This document shows positions 11,395 through 46,483 of a stretch of DNA of 64,000 nt, one piece after another. The stretch covers positions 4,032,001-4,096,000 of the forward strand of contig OZ243927.1 of NCBI GenBank assembly GCA_965213925.1, read 5' to 3'. Each line of letters starts with the position of its first letter. Within the stretch, counting starts at the first letter, position 1. The notes beneath the pieces are model-generated. The model saw only the letters and a program-made list of their open reading frames with translations, was not told the DNA's origin and did no database searches. The position numbers were made by a program, and so were the translations under genes. Source of the DNA: Trueperaceae bacterium. GTDB lineage: Bacteria; Deinococcota; Deinococci; Deinococcales; Trueperaceae.

Positions 11395-11476
11395 TGCCGG
11401 AAGCGGGACTCGAACCCGCACGGTTTTACCCGGTAGATTTTGAGTCTACTGCGTCTACCAATTCCGCCATCCCGGC
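11395..11476 (-). tRNA. tRNA-Leu(CAA)
   Basis: GCCGGGATGGCGGAATTGGTAGACGC...GTAGA-CTCAAAA-TCTAC, long variable arm, GGTTCGAGTCCC. Confidence 0.96.
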
Positions 11477-43653: not shown

Positions 43654-44223
43654 ATGGACACGCTTCTCGCTATCTGTTTGGGAGTTGCGCTCAGCGCTGC
43701 GTGCGGCTTCCGCGTCTTCATCCCGCCCTTCGTCATGAGCGCGTCGGCGATGTTCGGCGGCGTCGACTTGCCCGCGAGCGCCGACTGGATGGAAACGAAC
43801 GCCGCCTTTGCCGCTTTGGGCGCAGCCACGCTCGCCGAAGTCGCTGGCTTTTACATCCCTTGGGTGGATAACTTGCTCGACACCATCGCCGCGCCCGCCG
43901 CTGTAGTCGCAGGAACGCTGATTACAGGCTCGTTTGTACCCGAACTTGACCCGGTTTTGCGCTGGACGATGGCGGGTATTTTGGGCGGCGGGGCGGCGGG
44001 CGGTATTCAGGCGCTAACGAGCGTAACGCGGCTCGCCTCGACAACGACGACGGGGGGCGTCGGCAACCCAGTCTTTTCTACGGTCGAAAACGTTCTCGCC
44101 GTTCTCTTCTCCCTATTAGCCTTTATGCTACCTATTATCGCCATCATATTGCTCATCGCGCTCGTTATCTTCGCAGTGAGGCGCGTCGTACGCCTACGAG
44201 GACCTAAACAAGAGCAACTTTAG
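43654..44223 (+). CDS. DUF4126 family membrane protein
   Basis: LSAACGFRVF, YIPWVDNLLD, TTTGGVGNP...STVE. Confidence 0.88.
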   Translation: MDTLLAICLGVALSAACGFRVFIPPFVMSASAMFGGVDLPASADWMETNAAFAALGAATLAEVAGFYIPWVDNLLDTIAAPAAVVAGTLITGSFVPELDPVLRWTMAGILGGGAAGGIQALTSVTRLASTTTTGGVGNPVFSTVENVLAVLFSLLAFMLPIIAIILLIALVIFAVRRVVRLRGPKQEQL

Positions 44224-44253
44224 CCTAGGCTACATCAGTTTAATAGGAAAGAT

Positions 44254-44356
44254 AAAAGCCCTCTCGGAGAGGAGGACGAGAGGGCTTAGTGAGAGGCAGG
44301 GCGTAGGTGGTGATGCATGACGTGGTGGATGACGGTTCACGGTGTTGCCCTGCCTA
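44254..44356 (-). ncRNA. Candidate small RNA (~100 nt)
   Basis: -10 TAAAGT at 44362-44367, 9-bp closing stem AGGCAGGGC/GCCCTGCCT, 11-bp terminator stem followed by TTTT. Confidence 0.55.
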
Positions 44357-44377
44357 TATGTACTTTAGACGAAGAGG

Positions 44378-44395
44378 TCTTACAAAGTTCTTACA
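44378..44395 (-). promoter_or_regulatory. Direct-repeat box TGTAAGA-N4-TGTAAGA
   Basis: 11-bp period, 10 nt upstream of a -10 element; same layout at 45824-45841. Confidence 0.55.
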
Positions 44396-44547
44396 GCGCT
44401 CACGCCCCCTAGTTCCATGAAGGGTTTCTCAACGTGCGGGCGTATCTACTTCTGGAAAGTTTCAAGAGTAGGCGTGAGAACGTGATGCTCGAGCGCTCAG
44501 CATAGGGAAGCACGACAATCCACACATAAACAGCAGAAAACCGCATC

Positions 44548-44690
44548 TCACAGCACTTCCAAAACATACTGAGACAGAACGCCGTAGATTTCACAGCTTG
44601 CTGTAACGGAACCTCATCTCATAACGTGCGCGCTGAGCAGTGTTTTCTATAGTGAGAGTGTTTCTGACCACCATCGCTTTATACGGAATT
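44548..44690. repeat. Degenerate relative of repeat family C
   Basis: CTCACAGCACTTCCAAAACATACTGAGACAGAA is near-identical to 62367-62399. Confidence 0.65.
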
Positions 44691-44728
44691 GCACAGTTTA
44701 CTTACCCTAACTGAGGGCGTTGGAGCTT

Positions 44729-44891
44729 TTCAGCGAAGCGCCGAGTTTACGTCCCATCACAGATGGGCACGGCTTAGTTTTGCAAACTAAGCCGTGCAAC
44801 CTCGTATTACGTAAGTTTTGGCTCCGCCAAACGCGAGTACTAACGTGAACCGACCGTAGGGAGTTCAGCGAAGCGCCGAGGTTTTACCGTC
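44729..44891. repeat. 17-bp direct repeat pair enclosing a 14-bp hairpin
   Basis: TTCAGCGAAGCGCCGAG at 44729 and 44864; GCACGGCTTAGTTT-tgc-AAACTAAGCCGTGC between them. Confidence 0.75.
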
Positions 44892-46001: not shown

Positions 46002-46075
46002 CGCACCAGGAAGGACTCGAACCCTCGACCTATCGCTTAGAAGGCGACTGCTCTATCCAGCTGAGCTACTGGTGC
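46002..46075 (-). tRNA. tRNA-Arg(TCT)
   Basis: GCACCAGTAGCTCAGCTGGATAGAGC, anticodon loop CT-TCT-AA, GGTTCGAGTCC. Confidence 0.96.
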
Positions 46076-46200
46076 AAGATTGGTTACTTCGTAAAGCTTC
46101 GCGCAATCATCAATCAATAGACGCTATCACTGTTCACTACATCTGACCTGTTTGAACGCTAAAAGAATCGGTCCAGCGAAAAACGAACTGTCGATGATAA

Positions 46201-46277
<77 letters not shown>

Positions 46278-46406
46278 AAGATTGGTATCATCAATCGACA
46301 GACGCCGTCACTGAAAAAGCAAGTGTTGCTTCTTTCGACTTTTCAATACCTCATTTACTCGAGAAAGCCCAACTTCTATCCGACTTAACGAATAAGCTTT
46401 CCCAAA

Positions 46407-46483
<77 letters not shown>

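Follow-up and report, generated by a model that had tools for sequence, protein, structure and literature searches.

A candidate family of small RNAs with an exposed anti-Shine-Dalgarno motif behind a direct-repeat promoter type of the Trueperaceae

The csRNAs of the CiaRH regulon in Streptococcus are described in PMC3091779 as small RNAs whose promoters have a CiaR box, TTTAAG-N5-TTTAAG, ahead of the -10 box. In the account given in PMC10746234, the alphaproteobacterial alpha-r14/NfeR1 RNAs (RF02344) expose CCUCC-type motifs in hairpin loops as redundant seeds, and in Helicobacter pylori the RNA RepG uses the C/U-rich loop of its Rho-independent terminator as its mRNA-binding seed (PMC8295292). 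From RepG, the csRNAs and NfeR1, as reported in these sources, C/U-rich terminator loops and unpaired anti-Shine-Dalgarno motifs are proven seeds (PMC8295292, PMC3091779, PMC10746234).

Here we analyze a locus of similar design in the window, by which we mean the whole 64,000-nt stretch of DNA under study, taken from a 4.75 Mb Trueperaceae genome of 58% G+C. We put at about 0.6 the probability that positions 44355 to ~44250 of the minus strand are a free-standing gene for a ~105-nt sRNA, which would be expressed from a regulated promoter and would act on Shine-Dalgarno sites via a CU motif. The gene anatomy, its conservation and copy number, the promoter regulon and the conservation of the motif were all computed.

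The locus shares with the csRNAs, as PMC3091779 describes them, an intergenic position, a response-regulator type of direct repeat with a spaced -10 box, a terminator, two stem-loops, an unpaired anti-Shine-Dalgarno sequence and a host without Hfq. In both cases there are several paralogous genes per genome, two to six in the streptococci and three to five here (PMC3091779). The likeness is nonetheless one of design only: an intergenic promoter, a terminator and an unpaired anti-Shine-Dalgarno motif are present, but the CiaR box is not. The hosts belong to the Deinococcota rather than the Firmicutes, there is no sequence similarity and no match to an Rfam csRNA family, and the repeat sequence differs. 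Unlike in the csRNAs of that account, the CU motif of the window copy lies in the terminator loop instead of between the hairpins, and no CAU anti-start codon adjoins it (PMC3091779). RepG, for its part, targets a G-repeat in one leader and is a single-copy RNA of unrelated sequence without a direct-repeat promoter (PMC8295292). The alpha-r14 RNAs are further removed by host, and NfeR1 stands under LsrB/NtrC; the window unit has two hairpins in place of the three-hairpin CCUCCUCCC arrangement, with a single motif loop, UCCUCCUCUC, that is not CCUCCUCCC (PMC10746234). The alpha-r14 model gave the best response in Rfam (ar14, 29.3 bits, E 0.0032), far below its gathering score of 58.8, and no Rfam family matches the window sRNA at gathering threshold; the RNA had been called undescribed in the original prediction, and by this check it is. 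Y RNA, 6S RNA and riboswitches were ruled out on the same ground, that none gave an Rfam match. A literature search on Trueperaceae regulatory RNA, Deinococcus anti-Shine-Dalgarno sRNAs, or this repeat in connection with a response regulator surfaced nothing relevant. By analogy, we regard the window sRNA as an independent instance, in a distant lineage, of the design principle that the csRNAs and NfeR1 follow, and its family as a newly described one of putative anti-Shine-Dalgarno sRNAs under two-component control.

Table 1. Elements of the sRNA locus, with window coordinates read on the minus strand, its two paralogues in the same genome, and the loci at which a second sRNA precedes rpsA.
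Feature	Position	Strand	Remarks
Block upstream of the repeats, GAGAAAnnCTTCATGGAAC ... GGCGTGAGCGC	44396..44435	-	Conserved in the three syntenic orthologues only
Direct repeat 1, TGTAAGA	44389..44395	-	Upstream half-site of putative response-regulator box; kept in 12/12 family promoters
Direct repeat 2, TGTAAGA	44378..44384	-	Downstream half-site; 11 bp from repeat 1; ends 10 nt before the -10 box
-10 box, TAAAGT	44362..44367	-	TAAAGT in 11/12 family promoters, TACAGT in 1
Predicted transcription start, A	44355	-	Opens AGGCAGGGC; 7th nt past the -10 box; inferred
5' domain	44294..44355	-	9-bp stem, AGGCAGGGC 44355-44347 with GCCCUGCCU 44302-44294, around 44 nt
Linker, CUCACU	44288..44293	-	Short, single-stranded; followed by the stem-opening A at 44287
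Intrinsic terminator hairpin	44256..44287	-	11-bp stem, 10-nt loop UCCUCCUCUC; proposed anti-Shine-Dalgarno seed
U-rich tail, UUAUCUUU	44248..44255	-	Predicted 3' end; RNA of ~101-108 nt
Paralogue at 85% identity	C1:3735436-3735540		Own genome, BLAST
Paralogue at 72% identity	C1:723770-723875		Own genome, BLAST
Loci with the ~85-nt sRNA before rpsA	L083, L085/L108, L097, L098, L106, L107/L110, L111, L112, L114		

The original prediction had read TGTAAGA direct repeats, 10 nt and then TAAAGT on the minus strand, and these elements, like all others that it listed, are present at the positions given (Table 1). The two TGTAAGA copies are separated by a 4-nt spacer, and the alignment of the 12 family promoters yields the pattern TGTAAGA-N4-yGTnAnA-N10-TAAAGT-N6-+1. 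Two 7-nt direct repeats 11 bp apart in the place of a -35 box are a signature of OmpR-family regulators, and this OmpR/WalR-type layout, in which two half-sites one helical turn apart replace the -35 box, is found in all 12 family promoters. TGTAAGA-N4-TGTAAGA is thus most likely a response-regulator box of the OmpR/WalR type, although the assignment is putative and made from the repeat geometry. WalR/VicR boxes consist of two 7-nt repeats with the same 4-nt spacer, TGTWAHA-N4-TGTWAHA, and the geometry is identical; the consensus given in PMC4168254 differs at position 6, where the window repeats have G, which H excludes. None of the seven OmpR-type (Trans_reg_C) genes of the genome adjoins a promoter site. 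An alternative sigma-factor promoter was considered and ruled out because the spacing to the -10 box would not suit either repeat as a -35 element. We place the start of transcription at 44355 because leaderless open reading frames behind other sites of this promoter type fix +1 relative to the -10 box. The block upstream of the repeats is possibly a second regulatory site. Farther upstream, the spacer before the sRNA promoter is occupied by two dispersed repeat elements, at window positions 44551-44670 (~120 nt) and 44679-44810 (~130 nt), each present at about 30 or more places on the chromosome with 67-96% identity.

The promoter is a member of a regulon. A relaxed pattern, [TCA]GTnAnA-N4-[TC]GTnAn[AGC]-N9-11-TAnnnT, retrieved 31 sites in the genome and one in the reversed genome. 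As the direct repeat serves as a promoter element across the whole regulon, the description of the sRNA as "regulated" in the original prediction was well chosen. At six of the best 28 sites the first codon of an open reading frame of 60 aa or more lies 6-7 nt past the -10 box, and the mRNAs of these six frames are predicted to be leaderless. First open reading frames behind the sites include four PAS/GGDEF/EAL proteins, two S8 subtilases and a 119-aa CheY-like receiver without a DNA-binding domain, as well as DUF898, DUF805, a Big_5 protein and an Nth-like glycosylase. A strict form of the pattern was found in 59/128 Trueperaceae genomes, representing 26/36 genera, with no match to the backward control in any genome. 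The strict pattern was concentrated in this family in an order-wide sample: 29/53 Trueperaceae genomes carried it, compared to 6/19 in family f5, 1/53 in f2, 0/23 in f3 and 0/52 in f4.

Several neighbors of these sites deserve mention in their own right. A microbial rhodopsin gene (Bac_rhodopsin, E 2.8e-41; L090:256-1077(+), equal to G000:C1:152699-153520) is convergent to a leaderless CheY-like receiver gene, which is driven by a perfect TGTAAGA box. In other genera (L081, L082, L084 and L096) the promoter type precedes genes with a type IV pilin-like N-terminus (FTLIELLIV...). Two identical promoter copies, TGTAAGATTTCTGTAAGAGTCTGAAGGTATAGT, occur at G000:C1:3021017(-) and 3986084(-), one of them upstream of the gene for the Nth-like HhH-GPD glycosylase.

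Besides protein-coding genes, the promoter type precedes further non-coding units, which fall into at least three sequence families apart from that of the window copy; every unit combines a 5' hairpin with a CU-rich linker, and in most a terminator follows. Complete units, with a 5' hairpin at +1/+2, a CU-rich linker and a terminator, number at least nine in the genome when the three window-family copies are included. Two of them form one family (C1:1001131(-) and 2305015(+)) and two another (C1:4440744(-) and 3141380(-)); a unit at C1:2387805(-) has the terminator loop CCUCCCCC, and one more lies at C1:1947670(+). Small units at C1:2640806(-) and 2606345(-) lack a clear terminator. These arrangements suggest that the window sRNA is part of a larger, previously unrecognized sRNA regulon of the Trueperaceae.

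In other genera a predicted RNA of ~85 nt lies behind the same promoter, with the order GUGGAC..GAGGUAA..CUCCCA..UACCUC, then CUCCCAUCCUCUUCCGAAC, then a terminator (loci L083, L085, L097-L104 and L106-L119; for example, L110:1501-1585 and L110:1712-1796). It shares its promoter type and its 3' module, a CU-rich linker and a CUCCC terminator loop, with the window family, but its 5' domain is unrelated. It carries three exposed CUCCCA-type motifs. The terminator loop CUCCCAC is invariant in 12/12 sequences from 8 genera, and 7/10 stem pairs show compensatory changes. A covariance model of this RNA (R2) matched 94/128 Trueperaceae genomes in 31/36 genera, with up to six copies per genome; the window genome counts toward this tally through a single weak match (E 9.5e-4), and leaving out the unpublished genome G110 reduces it to 93/127 genomes and 30/35 genera. 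Against paralogues of the window family, R2 scored 11-23 bits, with 23.5 bits for L026 and 21.5 bits for genome copy B, through the linker-terminator module; against the window copy it gave no match at E values up to 10. Neither the ~85-nt sRNA nor the related units have an Rfam match.

The predicted window transcript consists of two helices joined by a short linker, as originally proposed. Its first nine nucleotides, AGGCAGGGC (44355-44347), are fully complementary to GCCCTGCCT (44302-44294), with 44 C/A-rich nucleotides between the arms; this interior contains AUCACCACCU, a sequence similar to the 16S rRNA 3' end, AUCACCUCCU. The 11-bp terminator stem pairs AAGCCCUCUCG (44287-44277) with CGAGAGGGCUU (44266-44256) around the 10-nt loop (44276-44267). 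RNAfold of 44245-44356 predicted these two helices and no others, at -39.7 kcal/mol (z = -6.66), a stability reached by none of 200 dinucleotide shuffles. The nine pairs of the 5' stem are invariant in 12/12 family copies and show no covariation, and because the stem does not vary, covariation speaks neither for nor against it. The terminator hairpin, with its CU-rich loop and U tail, was recovered both by RNAfold and by a terminator scan. In paralogues B and C the linker position is occupied by CUCUCCUCUCUC.

The CU-rich motif is the candidate functional element of the RNA, conserved in the family. The loop UCCUCCUCUC has CCUCCU in common with the 3' end of the 16S rRNA, GAUCACCUCCUUUCU, and it is the complement of GAGAGGAGGA, which makes it complementary to AGGAGG, the core of Shine-Dalgarno sites. 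Such complementarity is by itself weak evidence, as any CU-rich sequence matches Shine-Dalgarno sites. CCUC or CUCC occurs in predicted unpaired RNA in 12/12 copies (linker in 9, terminator loop in 10, both in 7), and the copies that have it in the loop only are exactly the three syntenic orthologues. In those three, UCCUCCUCUC is invariant while two stem pairs carry compensatory changes (G-C to A-U and U-A to C-G), which indicates that the loop singled out by the original prediction is conserved beyond the needs of a terminator. The family is shallow, being confined to three species of one genus, and its 12 copies are kin by descent, so that counts over them are not independent; unrelated sequences of the same design carry more weight for this reason.

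A scan for targets covered 3359 crude gene calls in one genome, with start codons picked by the strength of the Shine-Dalgarno sequence. Duplexes of the CU segments at or below -16 kcal/mol were more frequent in start regions than in coding controls (648 vs 366, 593 vs 316 and 784 vs 439), a 1.6-1.9-fold enrichment, vs 1.0-1.1-fold, or no start-region preference, for segments from the interior of the 5' domain (loop 1). Exact complements of the loop of at least 7 nt lie within 25 nt before 212/3359 starts, compared to 23 and 10 in control windows, a count that is biased because the starts were chosen by Shine-Dalgarno strength. The top duplex predictions in this one genome contained no coherent functional target set. 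A genome search for extended complements of the conserved interior of the 5' domain matched only the sRNA loci themselves.

From these data we infer transcription of the locus, the type of its regulator and its action in trans on Shine-Dalgarno sites. A response regulator of the OmpR/WalR type would bind TGTAAGA-N4-TGTAAGA in place of a -35 box and activate transcription. The 5' hairpin and the terminator would bracket a stable RNA of ~105 nt, whose exposed CU motif, displayed in the terminator loop in the window copy and in the linker, the loop or both in the paralogues, would pair with the Shine-Dalgarno regions of mRNAs. Ribosome access would thereby be blocked and translation initiation prevented. 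Pairing would proceed without Hfq, for which no gene was found in this 96.9%-complete genome; other systems with GC-rich anti-Shine-Dalgarno seeds likewise lack it.

The conservation of the C/A-rich interior of the 5' domain is left unexplained by the anti-Shine-Dalgarno model, and an RNA that titrates a protein could account for such an interior without a predicted RNA target. Ribosomal protein S1 binds pyrimidine-rich single strands, and it is the prime suspect for a pyrimidine-binding protein that the CU motifs and the C/A-rich region might sequester, in the manner of the CsrB/RsmY sponges, whose synthesis two-component systems control. Many paralogous genes, each with one to three exposed motifs and all behind one response-regulator-type promoter, would suit such a decoy. 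So would the position of the ~85-nt sRNA, which is directly upstream of and co-oriented with the multi-S1-domain gene rpsA in 9/22 of the genomes for which loci were fetched, representing 5/8 genera (Table 1). The window genome, however, has no regulon sRNA near rpsA (at ~G000:C1:190339-191970), and the motif exactly mimics the core of the 16S anti-Shine-Dalgarno sequence, which base pairing explains most simply. We therefore consider a decoy unlikely and retain base pairing with Shine-Dalgarno sites as the preferred reading.

The genomic setting of the gene bears on whether it acts at a distance. The neighboring gene at 43654-44223 is convergent and encodes a DUF4126 protein (Pfam E 6.7e-49), and the sRNA hairpin lies 33 nt past its stop codon. 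Both sister species of the genus have one syntenic copy, also convergent to DUF4126 and 84% identical over promoter and transcript, which bears out the expected conservation in relatives. Upstream of the promoter only ~37 nt can be aligned between the syntenic loci, and the remainder of the 650-nt spacer is unalignable. A BLAST search of the window genome returned three copies at 100, 85 and 72% identity, including the window copy; the sister species have four and five, for a total of 12 in three species. A covariance model of the 5' domain (R1) was run on 128 Trueperaceae genomes. All its matches were in genus g1, whose three genomes gave 3, 4 and 5 strong ones and, in addition, a weak one of 27 bits; the 125 genomes outside g1 gave none. 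A pattern scan of genome contigs gave 18 loci with one true member, from a sister species and already counted, and two pattern scans of metagenome contigs gave no new member (no matches in one, and in the other a single chance match within a coding region). To judge from the sequence comparisons, the window locus is conserved as a block and is most likely a real small-RNA gene, so far undescribed.

The convergent arrangement, kept in three species with the hairpin so close to the DUF4126 stop codon, would also be expected of a local cis-antisense element that, itself or by read-through, acts on the DUF4126 transcript, in whose 3' end the hairpin also lies, and has no distant targets. But paralogues B and C repeat this architecture next to unrelated genes. 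The end of B is 5 nt away from the stop codon of an OppC-type permease gene convergent to it, and C lies downstream of an unannotated lipoprotein-like open reading frame, facing surE. A conserved 5' domain and loop sequence are moreover unneeded for an overlap of 3' ends, and the synteny may simply be inherited. Purely local action is accordingly very improbable.

It could further be argued that there is no independent transcript at all, the hairpin serving only to terminate DUF4126, bidirectionally, behind a silent promoter-like motif. Hairpins that lack a U tract can suffice for termination in some GC-rich bacteria. The terminator scan, however, reported a T tail behind the hairpin only for the minus strand, where a GC-rich hairpin is directly followed by a U tract as in a Rho-independent terminator; what follows it on the plus strand is CTTAGTGAG. 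The block from promoter to terminator is conserved and multi-copy, and the promoter type is common to ~30 sites, including those of leaderless genes. Since the paralogues lie beside unrelated genes, the terminator belongs to the RNA unit and not merely to DUF4126. A silent locus is for these reasons scarcely credible, and the outcome that would have counted against the original prediction, a hairpin acting only as the DUF4126 terminator, is not what the sequence evidence points to.

A small protein gene is extremely unlikely: the sole open reading frame, a 36-codon GTG frame (44340-44230) from nt 16 of the transcript, is open in 9/12 family copies but absent in 3/12 and shifted by a 2-nt insertion in one, starts inside the 5' hairpin domain, reads through the terminator without ever meeting an in-transcript stop codon, and has a C/U-rich composition poor in stop codons, which agrees with the original view that no convincing frame is present.

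If the preferred reading of the window sRNA as a trans-acting, anti-Shine-Dalgarno RNA is correct, it would open a post-transcriptional layer in a family-wide promoter regulon that includes c-di-GMP enzymes, secreted proteases and type IV pilins. This layer would comprise several sRNA families, unrelated in sequence, that follow one design with an exposed 16S-like CU motif. It would also offer an entry point to the control of translation by two-component systems in a phylum that lacks Hfq and has many leaderless mRNAs. A bolder and rather improbable extension is that a set of response-regulator-controlled sRNAs in the Trueperaceae, whether anti-Shine-Dalgarno or S1-titrating, reprograms translation globally. 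Leaderless mRNAs are independent of S1. On induction, the CU-rich RNAs would cover Shine-Dalgarno sites or titrate S1. Messages led by a Shine-Dalgarno sequence would then be damped while leaderless ones escape, among them those for the regulon's own GGDEF-EAL enzymes and CheY-like regulator, and the position of the ~85-nt sRNA directly before rpsA, seen in five genera, would link the system to the supply of S1.

Elsewhere in the window, three tRNA genes are clustered at 46002-46483 (-), upstream of a gene for a PsbP-like lipoprotein, and one more lies at 11395-11476 (-).
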